A stretch of 64,000 bases of DNA from Promethearchaeota archaeon (GTDB lineage Archaea; Asgardarchaeota; Lokiarchaeia; Sigyniarchaeales; SOKP01), in the NCBI GenBank assembly GCA_018238625.1, contig JABCSY010000006.1, positions 9,704 to 73,703 on the forward strand. Direction: 5' to 3'. The translations under genes and the position numbers were made by a program. The notes beneath the pieces are model-generated. The model was not told where the DNA came from. It did not search any database and saw only the letters and a list, made by a program, of their open reading frames with translations. The first letter of the stretch is position 1. Each line of letters opens with the position of its first letter. Of this stretch, positions 17,818 through 58,276 are shown one piece after another.

Positions 17818-19128
17818 ATGATATTTATGGGATTTAGAGATTATATAAATAAAATTGATGAGAAAGGTCTCCTTCAAAAGGTAGATATCGAAACTTCGAA
17901 GAATTTAGAGATTTCTGGAATTTTAAAAGAGAAAGAACCAACTTCCTTAATGTTTAATAATGTTAAAGAATCTGAATTCAGGTTGGTTGGTAATATGTTC
18001 TGTACTAAGAATGTGATTGCTTCGTATTTCAATGTAACTCCCACAGACATCATACCAATGCTTTCAAAAGCAATTACTGAATGTTCAGAACCCGAAATCG
18101 TACCAAATGCTCCTTGTCAAGAAGTTATAGCATCAAGCGTAGATTTAGATAAATTACCAATTTTATTTCATTGCGAAAAGGACGGCGGGAATTACATAAG
18201 TTCTGCTGTCGTAATCACAAGAGACCCAGATTACGGACAAAACATGGATTTTCATCGGGCTATGCAATTTTCCAAAAACAAATTTTCTACTCGAATAGTT
18301 AGAGGTCGACATTTTCATACATTTTTAGAAAAAAATAGCGAATTAGATGTTGCTTTTTGCATAGGTAATACTCCTAACATTCTAATTGCCGGAGCTACGT
18401 CTGTGGATATTGGGGTTGACGAATTACATATTGCAAATGCATTAGAACCAATAAAAGTTGTTAAAGCAAATACAGTTGATCTTTTAATCCCTGCAGATGC
18501 AGAATTTGTATTAGAAGGGCGTGTCTATTTAGAAGAAAAACACGCTGAAGGCCCTTTTCTCGACTTAACAGAAACTTATGATATTATAAGAGAAGAACCC
18601 GTTTTTGAAGTTAAAAAAATAACTCATAGAAAGGACGCGATCTGGCAAGCGTTATTACCCGGTGCGCTTGAACATAAAATATTGATGGGTATGCCAAGAG
18701 AACCAACTATTTTCAATAAAGTGAACGAATCTGGTGTTAAATGCCTAGATGTTAATATAAATCCTGGAGGATGTTCGTGGCTACATGCAATTGTGCAAAT
18801 TGATAAAAAATCAGAAGATGATGGCAAAAAAGCTATTGAAGGTGCATTTATTGGACATAGTAGTTGCAAACACATATTTATTGTGGATAAAGATATTGAT
18901 ATTTACGACCCGTTATCTGTGGAATGGGCGATGGCAACTCGCTTTCAAGGCGATGTTAATATGAAAATTAAAGATAAGGAACCTGGAAGTAGTTTAGATC
19001 CTAGCGCAGAACCAGGAACGAAAATGACAACTAAAATGGGATTTGATTTAACGAAACCCTTAGTGACTAAAGGAAAGAGCTTTGATAGAGCTAGTTTCCC
19101 AAAAGTAGATTTGAACAAATATTTTTAA
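17818..19128 (+). CDS. UbiD-family decarboxylase, likely trans-anhydromevalonate 5-phosphate decarboxylase
   Basis: DGGNYI, EFVLEG, EGPFLDLTETYD, VDKDIDIYD...VEWAMATR; operon context with AcnX subunits. Confidence 0.88.
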   Translation: MIFMGFRDYINKIDEKGLLQKVDIETSKNLEISGILKEKEPTSLMFNNVKESEFRLVGNMFCTKNVIASYFNVTPTDIIPMLSKAITECSEPEIVPNAPCQEVIASSVDLDKLPILFHCEKDGGNYISSAVVITRDPDYGQNMDFHRAMQFSKNKFSTRIVRGRHFHTFLEKNSELDVAFCIGNTPNILIAGATSVDIGVDELHIANALEPIKVVKANTVDLLIPADAEFVLEGRVYLEEKHAEGPFLDLTETYDIIREEPVFEVKKITHRKDAIWQALLPGALEHKILMGMPREPTIFNKVNESGVKCLDVNINPGGCSWLHAIVQIDKKSEDDGKKAIEGAFIGHSSCKHIFIVDKDIDIYDPLSVEWAMATRFQGDVNMKIKDKEPGSSLDPSAEPGTKMTTKMGFDLTKPLVTKGKSFDRASFPKVDLNKYF

Positions 19129-19147
19129 TACAAAGCATTTGAGGATT

Positions 19148-20341
19148 ATGAGACTAGAACAAATAGAAAAAGATATGCTTGACGGAAAGCATGGAAAGTC
19201 CGCCCAGAAATCCATGGAAATATTAACCACTTTAGGCGAAATATTTGGTGCTGAATGTATGGTTGATGTTTATGGGGTTCAAATAGCAGGAGTTTCCTAC
19301 GCTAATCTTGGAGAAGCGGGGTTGGAATTCTTGAACGAAATGGCAGAGGATGGAAAGGTCAGGGTTTTAACTACTTTAAATCCCGCTGGAATGGATCGCG
19401 AAAATTGGCGAGCGTTAGGGATAGACGAAGAATTTTTTAAAAATCAGAATCGAGCTATAGATGCTTTTGCAAAAATGGGAATAATTACGACGTGTTCTTG
19501 TACACCTTATTTAATTGGAAACGCACCCCATTATGGACAGCACATTGCTTGGGCCGAAAGTAGCGCTGTTTGTTATTCCAACTCTGTTATTGGAGCTCGA
19601 ACGAATCGAGAGGGAGGACCAAGCGCTCTAGCAGCGGCTATAACCGGTAAGACGCCTAAATACGGCTATCATTTGGAAAAGAATCGTCATGGCCAAGTCT
19701 TGTTTAAGATAAACGCTTCAGTCAAGGGTACTGATGAGTTTGGCGTGTTGGGAAAATTTATTGGCGATAAACTAGTTGAAAATGGAAAAAAAATCCCTTA
19801 TATTGCGGGAATTCCTTCTGCTACCGTTGAAGAACTTAAGTCCTTTTGCGCTTCAGTCGCTACCTATGGTGGAACGGCATTATTCCACATGGAAGGAATT
19901 ACTCCTGAGTACAATAAGTACGCTAAACCAAGTGAAATTGTCATCGAAATCAATCAGGACGATTTAGATAAAACTCGTGCTGAGCTTATTGACGACGATC
20001 TTGAGATAGATTTTGTAAGTCTAGGTTGTCCTCACGCTTCAATTCACGAAATAGCGGAAATTGCGAAATTGTTAGAGGGAAAAAATGTAAAGAAAGAATT
20101 TTGGATTACTACGGCACGACCTACAAAAAGGATCGCAGACGAAGCCGGTTATTCTAAAATTATTGAAGAAGCTGGAGCAAAATTTGCGGCAGACACCTGT
20201 TGCGTCGTAGCTCCAATTAAAGGTCGCTTCAAGGGAATTATGGTCGATTCAGCAAAGGCGTGTTATTACGGCCGCGCAAAAAATAAATTTAAAGTAAAAA
20301 TTGGTTCAATAGAACAATGCGTTGAGGAGGCGATTAAATGA
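19148..20341 (+). CDS. Aconitase X catalytic subunit, likely phosphomevalonate dehydratase large subunit
   Basis: TTLNPAG, TCSCTPY, AWAESSA, GARTNREGGP, LGCPHAS, DTCCVVAP, DSAKA. ATG at 19148 follows GAGGA. Confidence 0.92.
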   Translation: MRLEQIEKDMLDGKHGKSAQKSMEILTTLGEIFGAECMVDVYGVQIAGVSYANLGEAGLEFLNEMAEDGKVRVLTTLNPAGMDRENWRALGIDEEFFKNQNRAIDAFAKMGIITTCSCTPYLIGNAPHYGQHIAWAESSAVCYSNSVIGARTNREGGPSALAAAITGKTPKYGYHLEKNRHGQVLFKINASVKGTDEFGVLGKFIGDKLVENGKKIPYIAGIPSATVEELKSFCASVATYGGTALFHMEGITPEYNKYAKPSEIVIEINQDDLDKTRAELIDDDLEIDFVSLGCPHASIHEIAEIAKLLEGKNVKKEFWITTARPTKRIADEAGYSKIIEEAGAKFAADTCCVVAPIKGRFKGIMVDSAKACYYGRAKNKFKVKIGSIEQCVEEAIK

Positions 20342-20727
20342 AGCTAGAAGGACGGAAAATTTATAAAGGAATTGCGAAAGCAGAAGCGATAGTAACTAAA
20401 GATGGGATCTCATTTTATGGTGGCGTAGATCCTGACACCGGTATAGTTGTTGAGGTTGGGCACGATCTTGAAGGACAATCAATAACCGGAAAAGTGCTAG
20501 TCTTTCCTACTGGTAAAGGCTCGACTGTAGGGTCGTACACGATGTATAGGATGAAAAAGAACAACAAGGCTCCAGCAGCAATCGTAAACGAAGAGATCGA
20601 TACTATAATAGCAGTGGGTTGTATAATTAGTGAAATTCCATGCGTAGATAAAATTGATATTAAAAATATTAAGACTGGGCAAAAATTAATTGTAAATGGT
20701 TCAGAAGGTACTGTGGAGGTGAAATAA
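20338..20727 (+). CDS. Aconitase X swivel subunit (DUF126), phosphomevalonate dehydratase small subunit
   Basis: ISFYGGVDPDTG, GKVLVFPTGKGSTVGSY; 4-nt ATGA overlap with the large subunit. Confidence 0.92.
   Translation: MKLEGRKIYKGIAKAEAIVTKDGISFYGGVDPDTGIVVEVGHDLEGQSITGKVLVFPTGKGSTVGSYTMYRMKKNNKAPAAIVNEEIDTIIAVGCIISEIPCVDKIDIKNIKTGQKLIVNGSEGTVEVK
20714..20721 (+). promoter_or_regulatory. Shine-Dalgarno sequence for mvk exon 1
   Basis: TGGAGGTG lies 6 nt upstream of the ACG at 20728. Confidence 0.6.
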
Positions 20728-21694
20728 ACGGGAACTGGAAAAGGATACGGTAAGACCATTCTCTTTGGCGAAATTTACTTCTCATTTCGGTAGTAGACGC
20801 AATCATTTTGTAGTTTATGGTCTTCCCGCTATTGCTTCGGCTTTAGGTACCTATACAACCGCAGATGTTAAAGTTGTTGAAGGGCAAAATTGGACTGTTG
20901 ACGATCAGAGACCCGCTACACCGGGTTATAAAAAAAAGAAATACGATGAAGCTATGCAATCAATTAGAAATGTATTGGAACTTTTAAAAATAGATACAGA
21001 TAGTCAAAAACTTGAAATAACTTTTACCGGAGATTTATTTGCTGCGAGTGGAGTTGGAGCTTCTGCTGCTCAATGCACATCTCTTACTCGTGCACTCAAC
21101 GATTGCTTTAATCTAAAATTAGACGATGAAAAGATAAACGAGGCTGCGTACGAAGGAGAAAAAGCTTATCACGGAACCCCTTCTGGTATTGACAACACGG
21201 CTTCGACTTACGGTGGTTTGATTTGGTTTGTGAAAAATTTAAGTGGTGGAAAAAATACGATGGACTTCCTTCAATCGCCAAAAAAGATGCCCTTAGTAAT
21301 CGCAAATTCAGGAATAACGGCTTCAACAACGGAAGTAGTTGCTGATGTTCGACGTTTAAAGGAAGCTAATTCAGAAGAATTTGAGAAGATACTAAACGAA
21401 TATAAGACTCTATCAGAAAAAGCAAAAAAAGCCTTGCTTGAAGGTGATATTGCCATTATAGGTAAATTAATGAATCAAAACCACGAATTACTTCAAAAAA
21501 TCTCAGTTTCAGGAGAAATAAACGATAAATTAGTGGAGATAGCACTAAAAAATGGAGCGGTTGGAGCTAAAATGACGGGAACTGGTCGGGGAGGTTTAGT
21601 AATCGCTTTAGCAGAAAATGAAGAAATGCAAGAATTTATCGCCAAGGCTATCGAAAAAGAAGGCTATGCCGCCTGGAGAACAATGATAGGATGA
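20728..21694 (+). CDS. mvk: Mevalonate kinase, split gene (exon 1 20728-20772, exon 2 20804-21694)
   Basis: Exon 1 reads (ACG)GTGKGYGKTILFGE and exon 2 reads HFVVYGLPAIA, which together give the GHMP motif GKxILFGEHxVVYG. Also SGVGASAA, HGTPSGIDN, GAKMTGTGRGG. The ORF-track N-terminus MAKFTSHFGSRRN is read-through of the insert. Confidence 0.9.
20773..20803 (+). other. Putative 31-nt bulge-helix-bulge-type intron in mvk
   Basis: ATTTACTTCTCATTTCGGTAGTAGACGCAAT. Inner stem TTTACT/AGTAGA (one G-U), central helix GGCG/CGCA (3 of 4 pairs), bulges AAA and ATC. Cutting after the 2nd nt of each bulge joins GAA|CAT (Glu-His). Confidence 0.78.
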
Positions 21695-21707
21695 GTGTTA
21701 ATTAAAA

Positions 21708-23612
21708 TTGAAAAGTAGTAATGAAATATTTCTGTTAAAATTGGGTGGAAGTTTATTAACGGATAAAAATATTCCTTTTTCTATCCGAACAGAAGTTGTA
21801 AATAGCGCAATTCAACAAATTATAGATGCTAATAAAAAATTGATCTTAATCCATGGAGGAGGTTCCTTTGGACATCCGATCGCTAAAAAATATGGTATTT
21901 CTCAAGGAATCGATATTTCTATTAAAAATCAGATATTTGGGCTAACTAAAACGCACGAAGCGATGATTAAATTCAATTCGCAAATAATTGAAGGATTTTT
22001 GGAAAAAAAATATCCAGCTCTTTCCATTCAACCTTCTAGTATTTTTATCAAACATTTAAACGAGATTTCTTTTGAATCTATCGAGCCAATTGAAACTTCG
22101 CTTGATCTTGGAGTTCTACCCGTTTTATATGGAGACATTATTCTTAATAAAGAAGGCAATTTTTCAATAATTTCTGGAGATCGCATAATTTTGGAATTGT
22201 GTAAAAAATTGAATAAGTATAGCATTTCTAAAGTTATTTTTGCTATTGAAAAAGATGGAATTTTTGTTGAAAGTATTGAAAATGATAAAAAAATCATAAA
22301 ATTAGCCTCAGAAATTAGTCTTGATGAGTTAGATAAAATTAAATTAGCCAATTTAGGAAATAAGATTGATGTTACGGGAAGTATTAGAGGAAAAATACAG
22401 GCTATTAAAGAAATTTGTAGATTAAATATTCCGGTTCAAGTTATAAACGGTCTGACGGATGGTAATATTTTAAAGGCCTTAAGCAGTCAAAAATTAAAAT
22501 GTACGAGCATTAGTGGAATTCACGACGAAAAAAGGTTATCAGAGATTTACATGAGAAAGATAGAACATCTCAAGATACCAATCACATCTAATGTCCAACA
22601 CATAAAAAATTATTTTGACGATATAAAATTAATTCATCATTCGCTTCCGGAAGTAGAACTAAATGATATTGACATCTCAACAATGTTTTTTAATAAAAAA
22701 ATTTCTGCTCCAATTTGTATTTCCGCTATAACCGGTGGCCATCCAATCTCTAAAGCAATAAACAGAATTTTAGCTAAAGCCGCAGAAGAAGAAAACATCA
22801 TAATGAGCGTAGGAAGCCAACGCATAGGCTTGGAAGATCTCTCTACCATTGAGTCTTTTGAGGTTGTTCGCGAAGTTGCGCCTAACATTCCGATAATTGG
22901 AAACATAGGAATCGGCCAAATAAATTCTTCCACCTTTAAAAAAGAAGATTTTATCGAATGTATTGAAATGGTAAAAGCAGATGTAATGGCTATTCATTTT
23001 AATGCTTTACACGAATTGGTCCAAAGCAACGGGAATATTTCCTACAAAAATTTCTTAGAAAAATTTCAAAAATTTCGAAAAGAAATTAACATTCCAATCA
23101 TCGCAAAAGAAGTGGGAACTGGCTTCAATAAGGACTTAGCCTTGAGTCTTGATTCGCTAGGATTCGATGGATTTGATGTCGGAGGCACTGGAGGTACAAG
23201 TTTTGCTGCAATTGAATCTCACCGCGATAATTTTAGTTTTGAAAAATATACGAGAAGACTCGCAGATTCTTTTAGAGAATGGGGTATCCCCACACCTCTA
23301 ACCATTCTTTATGTAAGAGAAGTTACTAAAAAATTGATTATAGCCACTGGTGGACTAAGGAATGGAATAGATATTGCTAAAAGCATCGCATTAGGTGCTG
23401 ATATCGGAGGATTTGCTTATAAATTTCTATTATCCGCTTGGAAAGATTACAACAACAACACTTTTAATCATACAATTAAAGAAATTAAAACATTGAAAGA
23501 CGAGTTGCGTTCTTCCTTATGGTTAACGAACGTAACAAACTTAAAAAAACTTAAGGGCAATAAGGACAAGCGAGTTCTGCTTGGAGAACTCTATCAATGG
23601 GTAAATCAATAG
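21708..23612 (+). CDS. Fused isopentenyl phosphate kinase and type 2 isopentenyl-diphosphate isomerase
   Basis: N-half LKLGGSLLTDK, HGGGSFGH, PVLYGD, SGD, DVTG (IPK). C-half RKIEHL, SAITGG, VGSQR, HFNALHELVQ, KEVGTG, GTGGTSF, ATGGLRNG (IDI-2). Confidence 0.92.
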   Translation: MKSSNEIFLLKLGGSLLTDKNIPFSIRTEVVNSAIQQIIDANKKLILIHGGGSFGHPIAKKYGISQGIDISIKNQIFGLTKTHEAMIKFNSQIIEGFLEKKYPALSIQPSSIFIKHLNEISFESIEPIETSLDLGVLPVLYGDIILNKEGNFSIISGDRIILELCKKLNKYSISKVIFAIEKDGIFVESIENDKKIIKLASEISLDELDKIKLANLGNKIDVTGSIRGKIQAIKEICRLNIPVQVINGLTDGNILKALSSQKLKCTSISGIHDEKRLSEIYMRKIEHLKIPITSNVQHIKNYFDDIKLIHHSLPEVELNDIDISTMFFNKKISAPICISAITGGHPISKAINRILAKAAEEENIIMSVGSQRIGLEDLSTIESFEVVREVAPNIPIIGNIGIGQINSSTFKKEDFIECIEMVKADVMAIHFNALHELVQSNGNISYKNFLEKFQKFRKEINIPIIAKEVGTGFNKDLALSLDSLGFDGFDVGGTGGTSFAAIESHRDNFSFEKYTRRLADSFREWGIPTPLTILYVREVTKKLIIATGGLRNGIDIAKSIALGADIGGFAYKFLLSAWKDYNNNTFNHTIKEIKTLKDELRSSLWLTNVTNLKKLKGNKDKRVLLGELYQWVNQ

Positions 23613-24160
23613 CCCCCCCATCTCTTTATCCCGCTTTCAATACCTATTTGATCAAGTATTCTTCCTACGAAATAATTATTTAGTTCATTGATATTTTTAG
23701 GTTTAATATAATAAGAAGGAATTGGTGGCGCGATTATAACTCCAATTCTTGCTAATTTAAGCATATTTTCAAGGTGTATCGCGCTAAAAGGAGTTTCTCG
23801 AACTACTAATACGAGTTTTCTTCGTTCTTTAATTGTTACATCTGCGGCTCTGGTTATTAAGTTATCTGCATAACCGTTAGCAATAGAAGCCAAAGTTTTC
23901 ATCGAGCACGGAATAATTACCATAGCATCAATTTTATAAGAACCACTGGCGGGGTTTGCCGTTAAATCATTAACATCGTAATGTTTTGTTGATAAATCAA
24001 TAATATCATTTAGCTTGAAATCAGTTTCAATGTCAATGATTTTCTCAGCTACTCTTGATATTATTAATTCAGTTACAACTTCTTTTTTCTTCAGTTGTTG
24101 TAGCAAGATAATCGCTAGGTTAGCCCCACTAGCGCCCGTGATAGCAACTAACAAAACCAA
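23606..24160 (-). CDS. ubiX: Flavin prenyltransferase
   Basis: VAITGASG, ASGS, PCSMKTLASIANG, RAADVTIKERRKLVLVVRETP. Confidence 0.95.
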   Translation of the reverse strand: MVLLVAITGASGANLAIILLQQLKKKEVVTELIISRVAEKIIDIETDFKLNDIIDLSTKHYDVNDLTANPASGSYKIDAMVIIPCSMKTLASIANGYADNLITRAADVTIKERRKLVLVVRETPFSAIHLENMLKLARIGVIIAPPIPSYYIKPKNINELNNYFVGRILDQIGIESGIKRWGGY

Positions 24161-57643: not shown

Positions 57644-57840
57644 TATTTAAATTCCCCTTTCGATTAGTTATCGATGTATAAGATTTTAATTTATTTTAAT
57701 ATTAGGATTTTCTTAATTTTAGTATTTTAAATACTGGACTTTAACAACTACAAAGTTCACAAGATATAAAAATTTCGAGTAATTATATTCCTCAGGCTCT
57801 AATTTTATTGGCAATGGAAACTTTCGAAATTTAATTCATT

Positions 57841-57925
57841 GCGGGAATTGCCAAGCTTGGTCAAAGGCGCTGGACTCAGAATCCAGTCCCGTAGGAGTTC
57901 GGGAGTTCGAATCTCCCTTCCCGCA
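57841..57925 (+). tRNA. tRNA-Leu (CAG), intronless, CCA not encoded
   Basis: Acceptor stem GCGGGAA/TTCCCGC plus discriminator A; anticodon stem CTGGA/TCCAG with loop CT-CAG-AA; long variable arm; T-arm GGGAG-TTCGAAT-CTCCC. Confidence 0.93.
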
Positions 57926-58276
57926 TTTAACCACAATACTAATACCTAAGAATTAGAGGATTGGATTTGTAATTCATTATACTTTCAAAATAATTGGGAA
58001 AGATTATACCTCAATTCTTTTTATATAAAAAATCTTCACTCACACTACCAAAAGATAAATATCAAAGGTGGGGAAGGAACTATGGTTTTTTATGCCATTA
58101 GTTTTTATTATAAAACGTAGATTTAGATTACATTTAACTATTTATTTTGAGGCTAGGAATTCTGCCATGTGTCCCTATAATATATAATTCTTTCATTATT
58201 AACCCCAACGGAAGGCATTCTTTCTTGGATCTTGATAAGAAACAATACATTTTAACTATAAAATTATTCATAAATC

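Follow-up and report, generated by a model that had tools for sequence, protein, structure and literature searches.

The mevalonate kinase gene and its insert

The window analysed here, a stretch of 64,000 nucleotides (nt) from a Promethearchaeota archaeon (contig JABCSY010000006.1, positions 9,704 to 73,703), contains a mevalonate kinase gene (mvk) whose GKTILFGE|HFVVYG motif is split by an insert of 31 nt at positions 20773-20803. The frame from 20728 encodes TGTGKGYGKTILFGE, followed by IYFSFR and two stop codons (TAG at 20791-20793 and 20794-20796), and the frame one base over encodes HFVVYG and the rest of the protein from 20804 onwards, with 296 codons and a stop codon at 21692-21694. 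Excision of exactly 20773-20803 joins GKTILFGE to HFVVYG and restores the reading frame. The same GE-H junction is found in intron-free orthologues such as L058, whose exon-1 peptide is identical to that of the window. A first-pass annotation of this DNA had described a frameshifting insert at these positions within the GE|H motif, whose removal leaves no residue extra or missing, and both its coordinates and its description agree with the reading frames and with the intron-free orthologues. The GC content in the window ranges from 0.28 to 0.36, so the region is AT-rich.

Exon 2 alone matches the NCBIfam mevalonate kinase model TIGR00549 with 214.6 bits (cut-off 163.05) over profile positions 11-276 of 276, the insert-free orthologue L058 matches it with 239.8 bits over positions 3-276, and both PF00288 and PF08544 are matched by the gene. 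The residues of the GKxxLFGEHxVVYG motif are presumably those with catalytic roles in mevalonate kinase. The genome that carries the window (G000, in which the window is contig C175) has 4.29 Mb in 201 contigs, with 97.9% completeness and 7.6% estimated contamination. A second bona fide mvk, which the earlier annotation had proposed to look for, was not found in this genome by the exon 2 search or by TIGR00549: only distant GHMP kinases were recovered, and mvk is the only gene above the cut-off. The runner-up on TIGR00549 is an open reading frame (ORF) of 314 amino acids (aa) on contig C97, which reaches 137.5 bits, shows a galactokinase-like N-terminus and occurs in genomes with and without the mvk insert. 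The remaining GHMP paralogues resemble HddA-like, galactokinase-like and pantoate-kinase-like proteins.

Distribution of the insert and selection on the exons

The family contains 135 species genomes. This mvk was found in 93 of them at E <= 1e-60, and the junction was read in 91: 31 from the genus of the window and 60 from other genera. G006, in which a truncation affects the gene further downstream, is counted among the 31. The junction was not read in G004, where a contig end cuts the site, in G127, which is partial, and in G137, where the N-terminal part is absent. An insert lies at exactly the GE|H codon boundary in 54 of the 91 genomes, which places it beyond chance, and the other 37 have GE and H adjacent. 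Its length is 31 nt in 49 genomes, 30 nt in four and 28 nt in one. By genus, the insert is present in 21 of 31 genomes of g1, 25 of 40 of g22, four of four of g16, three of seven of g21, one of four of g12 and none of five of g15; insert-free genes thus occur in 10 of the 31 genomes of the window's own genus, as well as in more distant Asgard relatives. All 54 inserts, the four of 30 nt included, show a stop codon in the frame of exon 1. The insert-bearing gene of G006 (L027, on contig C117) aligns with the query over residues 1-121 and 247-296 only, with an open frame that ends after 155 codons, and is either broken or mis-assembled in its middle.

Purifying selection acts on both exons. In exon 1, a pN/pS of 0.16 was obtained for the 14 codons that follow the start position, across 28 insert-bearing orthologues, and GKTILFGE is nearly invariant at the protein level while its codons vary; exon 2, compared between the window and nine insert-bearing relatives, shows a dN/dS of 0.08-0.23. 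These values, which answer the test on both exons proposed by the first-pass annotation, indicate that each exon is kept as coding sequence in its own frame, which excludes simple decay, and the selection on exon 1 speaks against a product initiated at TTG 20765 that leaves exon 1 out. A pseudogene or crippled copy, whose function would be taken over by another kinase or by a truncated product from TTG 20765, would account for the frameshift, the in-frame stops and an exon 1 that lacks a canonical start codon; the C97 paralogue with its 137.5 bits on the mvk model, and the genomes G012 and G023, in which the best match is a different mvk type only 34-35% identical, also speak for it. This explanation is nevertheless very improbable: the insert is kept at one site in 54 species of five genera, the selection extends to the 15 codons that would be untranslated if TTG 20765 were the start, the C97 protein stays below the cut-off with a galactokinase-like N-terminus and is present regardless of the mvk insert, and the remaining pathway operon is intact. 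The earlier argument against simple pseudogenisation is therefore borne out: the site is conserved, both exons are under selection, and no second bona fide mvk was found in the genome.

A quick IQ-TREE phylogeny was built from 69 distinct proteins (27 insert-bearing and 42 insert-free); L027, being truncated, was not included. The insert is missing from all 11 outgroup rows and present in the two ingroup branches that split off first (L092 and a clade of eight), and the remaining rows are a mosaic. Parsimony requires 11 changes on this tree, of which at least four are forced by the starred branches, and grouping all insert-bearing rows in one clade is rejected by the approximately unbiased test (log-likelihood difference 203, p 1e-79). 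Since the inserts are alignable, with a mean column identity of 84%, a single origin followed by repeated precise losses would be the simplest reading of this history; recombination between alleles would give the same pattern.

Transcript evidence

Of seven runs labelled as RNA, four have any share with the window, all small (0.05-0.07 of words), and four runs were compared at 85% likeness. Run X2, which is metatranscriptomic, gave a contig of 1592 nt that aligns to 20295-20772 and then to 20804-21917; exactly the 31 nt in between are missing, the position of the junction is unambiguous, and this skip is what splicing predicts. The contig shows 132 differences from the window (about 92% identity), and its variants match insert-bearing relatives, with 39 of 40 shared with L009. 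The clade of L009 has 91-93% DNA identity to the window and its six genomes all bear the insert, while the nearest insert-free relatives are at about 84%. Run X4, from the same study as X2, gave a contig over 19500-20895 that retains the insert, and the two contigs show the same variant letters at the 32 listed places covered by both. Run X1, which is probably DNA, retains the insert, and run X3 does not cover the site. The search for junction reads suggested by the first-pass annotation was answered in part: one metatranscriptome contig carries the exact 31-nt skip, yet it is a contig and not reads, and X4 keeps the insert.

An artefact of assembly or population, in which mis-assembly or a mixture of insert-bearing and insert-free strains imitates splicing, has in its favour that the genomes are metagenome-assembled, that G000 has 7.6% estimated contamination, that 10 of 31 genomes of the same genus carry insert-free alleles and that the RNA evidence consists of contigs. 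It is the least probable of the explanations weighed here: 54 genomes, each assembled independently, contain the insert, and its sequences diverge and show compensatory changes among them, the joined contig was built from 31-letter words and so requires real reads across the junction, and it matches the insert-bearing clade in identity and in variants, the insert-free relatives being only about 84% identical. Translational recoding, in which the ribosome shifts by +1 or bypasses the insert on an unspliced mRNA, would fit the net +1 shift needed by the inserts of 31 and 28 nt, and split genes of similar appearance have been confused with frameshifts before (PMC2738675, in the part of the article available). 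Against it, the lengths of 28, 30 and 31 nt call for different shifts, every one of the 54 inserts has an in-frame stop even where its length is 30 nt, about 10 residues would enter the invariant GEH motif from an insert whose sequence is not conserved as protein, and the X2 contig lacks the 31 nt. Bypass in particular would find no landing codon that matches the GAA or GAG take-off codon, as the last three nucleotides of the insert are GAA or GAG in none of the 54 genomes. There is thus very little room for recoding.

Predicted RNA structure and exon co-adaptation

In the predicted structure, a four-pair central helix joins the end of exon 1 to the 3' part of the insert, is flanked by two 3-nt bulges and stacks with a hairpin within the insert, and an exon-exon clamp, AAGACCAU with AUGGUCUU, closes an internal loop of 7 and 15 nt (Table 1). 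This is the arrangement known as bulge-helix-bulge (BHB), seen in archaeal tRNA and cbf5 introns, and the motif is likewise described in the accessible text of a preprint (bioRxiv 10.64898/2026.10.13.758758). For cbf5, the endonuclease is stated to cut between bulge nucleotides 2 and 3 (PMC2738675, available part). The same rule, applied to the central helix in the window, removes exactly 20773-20803, so that the predicted cuts, after 20772 and after 20803, coincide with the only junction that restores the frame and with the junction of the RNA contig. Among the 54 insert-bearing genomes, the first central pair is GC in all; the second is CG in 50, UA in three and UG in one; the third is GC in 50 and GU in four; and the fourth is G.A in 33, GU in 20 and GC in one. 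The G-A mismatch named in the earlier annotation is real, with G20767 opposite A20801.

The unconstrained minimum-energy fold of the core (35-38 nt) shows at least three central-helix pairs in 53 of 54 genomes and both bulges unpaired in 51 of 54, and in 36 of the 54 core folds the hairpin follows directly on a 3-nt bulge, as the strict arrangement demands. The hairpin has four to nine pairs (median eight), and four of its eight pairs show changes on both sides. In alignment A2, which contains 28 sequences, 84.7% of the cells are paired, compared with 37-45% when the partners are slid, and the covariation score was reached by two of 500 shuffles. No Rfam family reached its gathering score in the insert region, and the single-sequence fold of an 81-nt stretch of the window did not return the BHB (z = -1.48).

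Since codons make up both the helix and the clamp, constraint on them is expected only where the intron exists, and this matches the counts obtained. The Gly codon that forms the helix is GGC in 50 and GGU in four of the 54 insert-bearing genes, and never GGA or GGG; in three of the four genes with GGU the intron has CAC, so that a U-A pair forms, and the fourth gives U.G. In the 37 insert-free genes this codon is GGA in 15, GGU in 11, GGG in six and GGC in five. At least seven of the eight clamp pairs are formed in 52 of the 54 insert-bearing genes versus three of the 37 insert-free genes, with means of 7.7 and 5.2. Both counts share phylogeny: there are only four independent contrasts on well-supported branches of the 69-protein tree, too few for a sign test to be significant, and all four go the same way (p 0.125). 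The insert-free orthologues in which the clamp is still paired are L171 of G066 (8/8) and L168 of G067 and L170 of G100 (7/8 each), while the other 34 insert-free genes differ; these three may be recent precise losses of the intron.

Splicing enzymes and other candidate introns

PF01974, the family of the tRNA splicing endonuclease EndA, has two matches in G000 (97.7 and 73.8 bits), the ORFs concerned being 200 and 201 aa long, as in a two-subunit EndA, and the ligase RtcB is found with 556.8 bits. The first EndA ORF aligns end to end with its best match of known structure, chain 3p1z_B (E 8e-35), which we take to be the catalytic subunit of a crenarchaeal heterotetramer. By eye, one EndA ORF shows Tyr, His and Lys at the expected places, presumably the residues of the catalytic motif, and the second lacks the His and partially matches a beta-subunit model. 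According to the available part of Kaneta et al. (PMC5829648), Asgard archaea have an (alpha-beta)2 EndA with an L1 insert that is linked to a broad substrate range. From its gene content, the host appears to encode an EndA of this broad-specificity type together with an RtcB ligase.

ARAGORN found only 28 tRNA genes in G000, 17 of them with a predicted intron of 5-107 nt, and many tRNA genes are probably interrupted in ways that ARAGORN cannot see. These counts fit the heavily interrupted tRNA genes of Asgard archaea reported in the accessible text of the 2026 preprint (bioRxiv 10.64898/2026.10.13.758758). The window itself contains one uninterrupted tRNA-Leu(CAG) at 57840-57926.

No related introns were found elsewhere in the genome with the covariance model R1 (38 positions, 28 cores), which matched the mvk locus only, with 53.6 bits, the runner-up reaching 22.6 bits (E 0.06); membership of a repeat family is ruled out by this result. 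A scan of G000 for BHB-like motifs that merge two open frames gave 886 cases compared with 838 when the 3' partners were slid by 2 as a control, which is no excess, and at the stringency shown by the mvk motif it gave eight compared with 13 in the slid control, with mvk itself recovered. Eight scan candidates with long frames on both sides looked, by eye, like adjacent genes or antisense frames. The genome thus appears not to have many mRNA introns of this type, of which a handful could be missed by the scan.

Interpretation of the insert as a probable spliced intron

With a probability of roughly 0.85, positions 20773-20803 are a BHB-type intron in the coding sequence of mevalonate kinase, spliced by EndA and RtcB, and cleavage by EndA is predicted. 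The reading of the insert as a spliced intron, rather than as a lesion that makes the gene a pseudogene, is well supported by its conservation, the selection on both exons, the BHB geometry, the co-adaptation of the exons, the presence of EndA and RtcB, the lack of a second mvk in the genome and the X2 contig. In the proposed mechanism, the end of exon 1 (GGCG) would pair in the pre-mRNA with CGCA near the 3' end of the intron, the intron hairpin would stack on this central helix, and the 8-bp clamp between the exons, 7 and 12 nt further out, would hold the ends together. The two-subunit EndA would then cleave both strands 2 nt 3' of the central helix, following A20772 and U20803, and RtcB would ligate the exons, restoring GKTILFGE|HFVVYG and the frame; EndA and RtcB are the likely acting enzymes. 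Without splicing, the RNA would yield only a peptide of 21 residues or, with a start at TTG 20765, a protein devoid of the GKxxLFGE segment.

Several observations weigh against this interpretation. The evidence for spliced RNA is one assembled contig from a relative and not raw reads of this organism, an RNA-library contig of the same study (X4) keeps the insert, and DNA carry-over or an insert-free strain about 92% identical to the window is a possible source of the X2 contig. The fourth central pair is a G.A mismatch in the majority of genomes, the window included. The covariation is modest, with five of 12 pairs doubly changed in alignment A2, a count reached by 19 of 500 shuffles. No exon-exon helix adjoins the central helix (at most one U-A pair by eye), and the 3' cut site lies in an unpaired stretch of 15 nt. 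RNAalifold, run de novo on 28 sequences, finds only the clamp and does not recover the central helix; it pairs instead GCGAA of exon 1 (20768-20773 with the A) with UUUUG(U) of exon 2 (20807-20812), and this pairing shows no covariation because both of its strands are constrained codons. In a context of 79 nt, the central helix is in the minimum-energy fold of only 14 of 28 sequences, and the BHB fold of the window lies 0.8 kcal/mol above the minimum. The competing GCGAA(A)/UUUUG(U) fold is the minimum in the window's clade, 0.4-0.8 kcal/mol below the BHB fold, and would bury the 5' cut site. Finally, exon 1 has ACG and no canonical start codon, and the splicing model leaves the start of translation without explanation.

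Because the outer exon-exon helix next to bulge 2 is absent, the motif as modelled is a relaxed, bulge-helix-loop-like BHB and not the canonical hBHBh' form, and the strict form is not needed by the (alpha-beta)2 EndA (PMC5829648, available part). The departures from the canonical motif, namely the G.A pair in 33 of 54 genomes and the missing outer helix at the 3' site, would also suit removal at the RNA level by another nuclease and ligase or by self-cleavage, with a BHB-like fold that is incidental or serves stability or pausing. This is improbable, since the BHB rule places the cuts exactly where the frame is restored and where the RNA contig is joined, and since constraint on the exon part of the helix and on the clamp is confined to insert-bearing genes. 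Self-splicing in particular is opposed by the size of 28-31 nt and by the lack of an Rfam family at gathering score; to our knowledge, an insert of this size is below that of known self-splicing introns.

The further idea of the first-pass annotation, that splicing could gate isoprenoid flux within a polycistronic mRNA, finds no support in these data: the insert also occurs where the AcnX swivel gene is not next to mvk, and many relatives, among them 10 of the 31 genomes of the window's genus, do well without it. Within the preferred reading, splicing of the intron by EndA and RtcB, the competing folds leave a slim chance that splicing is conditional: a switch between the BHB fold and the GCGAA(A)/UUUUG(U) fold that buries the 5' site could couple the synthesis of mevalonate kinase and the supply of membrane lipid to the capacity of EndA and RtcB for tRNA maturation. 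If this doubtful extension were true, conditional splicing of mvk would be an Asgard counterpart of regulated mRNA splicing of the HAC1/XBP1 type.

Comparison with known introns

Watanabe et al. in 2002 reportedly described a pre-mRNA intron in cbf5 of Crenarchaeota. This intron is treated by Yokobori et al. 2009 (PMC2738675, of which part was available). Both the cbf5 and the mvk introns are short, lie inside a coding sequence, show a mostly relaxed BHB with cuts between bulge nucleotides 2 and 3, and are found in hosts with a hetero-oligomeric EndA; in both, the patchy distribution is read as gain and loss and the split gene has been confused with a frameshift in annotation. They differ in the gene and in the host, as cbf5 encodes an RNA-modification enzyme in Crenarchaeota and mvk a metabolic enzyme of the mevalonate pathway in Promethearchaeota (Asgard). 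The 3' site of mvk is loop-like and closed by the distal 8-bp clamp, and its central helix mostly contains G.A. Splicing of cbf5 is known from cDNA and in vitro cleavage, whereas that of mvk is read from one metatranscriptome contig.

A second case, a BHB intron in the 5' untranslated region of HVO_1309 of Haloferax volcanii, is given in the accessible text of Schwarz et al. 2020 (PMC7714728), which names cbf5 as the only other mRNA example to 2020. As is proposed for mvk, the tRNA splicing endonuclease acts there on an mRNA, and so on a target other than tRNA or rRNA. In HVO_1309, however, the intron lies in an untranslated leader, the coding sequence is uninterrupted and the host has a different type of EndA; it was confirmed by knock-down and an in vitro assay, whereas the mvk case is known from sequence and an RNA contig. 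Archaeal tRNA introns, which occur at canonical and non-canonical positions, share with the mvk intron a recognition motif half built of exon, the same presumed enzymes and a history of repeated gain and loss. In mvk, by contrast, the host is an mRNA whose exon half is made of codons, so that synonymous sites are constrained, and the search of the genome gave no other sequence related to the intron.

In eukaryotes, HAC1 and XBP1 mRNAs undergo unconventional cytoplasmic splicing, in which the endonuclease is IRE1 and which is regulated by stress. The mvk intron, as proposed, resembles these in being a very short frameshifting intron, with a protein endonuclease that recognises structure and an RtcB-type ligase, where only the spliced mRNA gives an active protein. 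IRE1 is unrelated to EndA and is stress-regulated; the likeness is one of function and no family membership is claimed. A role of RTCB in the unfolded protein response is described in the available part of PMC10944509.

The literature searched, which left subscription journals and supplements outside its range, gave no mention of a mevalonate kinase intron or of BHB introns in Asgard mRNAs; the supplements of PMC5829648 and of the 2026 preprint may bear on this. In all likelihood, the mvk insert is a relaxed BHB intron in a coding sequence that is new both in its gene and in its phylum, the only confirmed coding case in the literature searched being cbf5. It would be the second gene with a BHB intron in its coding sequence, in the archaeal group closest to eukaryotes, and would mean that the tRNA-splicing machinery has been entrusted with an essential metabolic mRNA over long evolutionary times. 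The 54 intron-bearing and 37 intron-free orthologues form a natural series for the study of codon constraint by introns and of precise loss, and the mvk intron offers a defined relaxed substrate to probe the specificity of the Asgard EndA. Gene callers start mvk at TTG 20765 or call the gene broken, and pathway reconstructions for these Asgard genomes may as a result wrongly score a truncated mevalonate kinase.

Neighbouring genes and translation start

The genes around mvk are all intact, with full-length ORFs and full-length Pfam matches (Table 1), as the first-pass annotation had stated for the neighbouring pathway genes. We take this set to be the archaeal (anhydromevalonate) version of the mevalonate pathway. 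Of 28 insert-bearing orthologues, 12 lack the AcnX swivel gene immediately upstream of mvk, so the presence of the insert does not depend on this operon arrangement.

Table 1. Features of the mvk locus and of the predicted RNA structure, in window coordinates
Feature	Positions	Strand	Remarks
UbiD-like	17818-19128		Intact ORF, full-length Pfam match
AcnX (large subunit)	19139-20341		Intact ORF, full-length Pfam match
AcnX swivel domain (small subunit)	20338-20727		Intact ORF, full-length Pfam match
Shine-Dalgarno-like GGAGGTGA	20715-20722	+	5 nt 5' of ACG; kept in orthologues behind the AcnX swivel gene
mvk exon 1	20728-20772	+	15 codons, TGTGKGYGKTILFGE; ACG where 43 of 70 orthologues have ATG
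Clamp, 5' strand AAGACCAU	20752-20759	+	8/8 predicted pairs with 20817-20824; in the RNAalifold consensus
Central helix, exon-1 strand GGCG	20767-20770	+	Predicted to pair with 20798-20801
Bulge 1 (A A | A)	20771-20773	+	Predicted 5' cut 20772/20773; unpaired in the core minimum-energy fold
Proposed intron, 31 nt	20773-20803	+	In-frame TAG TAG at 20791-20796
Intron hairpin	20774-20797	+	UUUACU (20774-20779) with AGUAGA (20792-20797), plus two inner pairs
Central helix, intron strand CGCA	20798-20801	+	Predicted to pair with 20767-20770
Bulge 2 (A U | C)	20802-20804	+	Predicted 3' cut 20803/20804; in a 15-nt single-stranded stretch, loop-like
mvk exon 2	20804-21694	+	296 codons plus stop codon; TIGR00549 match
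Clamp, 3' strand AUGGUCUU	20817-20824	+	Predicted exon-exon pairing with 20752-20759
AA_kinase and FMN_dh, putative fusion	21708-23612	+	Intact ORF, full-length Pfam match
UbiX-like flavoprotein	23606-24160	-	Intact ORF, full-length Pfam match

Exon 1 contains no ATG, GTG or TTG, and the conserved start position is occupied by ACG (20728-20730), directly after the TAA of the upstream gene (20725-20727). Among the 70 orthologues, the start codon is ATG in 43, TTG in nine and GTG in six. ACG follows the upstream stop in nine ingroup sequences (the window, L008, L009, L010, L040, L041, L058, L059 and L068), which show no alternative in-frame start codon and of which two are insert-free; a tenth ACG, in the outgroup sequence L025, lies inside a longer open frame. 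The strong GGAGGTGA located 5 nt upstream, together with the purifying selection on the gene in this clade, suggests either initiation at ACG or coupling of termination and reinitiation in the ACG-bearing clade; in the window, translation would start at ACG or re-initiate after the upstream TAA.

The gene at 21708-23612 is a single ORF of 634 aa with a domain of the amino-acid kinase family that is isopentenyl phosphate kinase-like (residues 7-247) and a flavin mononucleotide-dependent dehydrogenase-like domain that resembles type 2 isopentenyl diphosphate isomerase (residues 451-616), and appears from its domains to be a fusion of two consecutive pathway steps. In G012 (L028) and G023 (L029), which belong to the window's genus, the best match is the mevalonate kinase of 34-35% identity mentioned above; its N-terminus reads PGK..L.GEHAVVYG, the more usual type, as in the neighbouring family, and this suggests that mvk was replaced by another mvk type in these two genomes.

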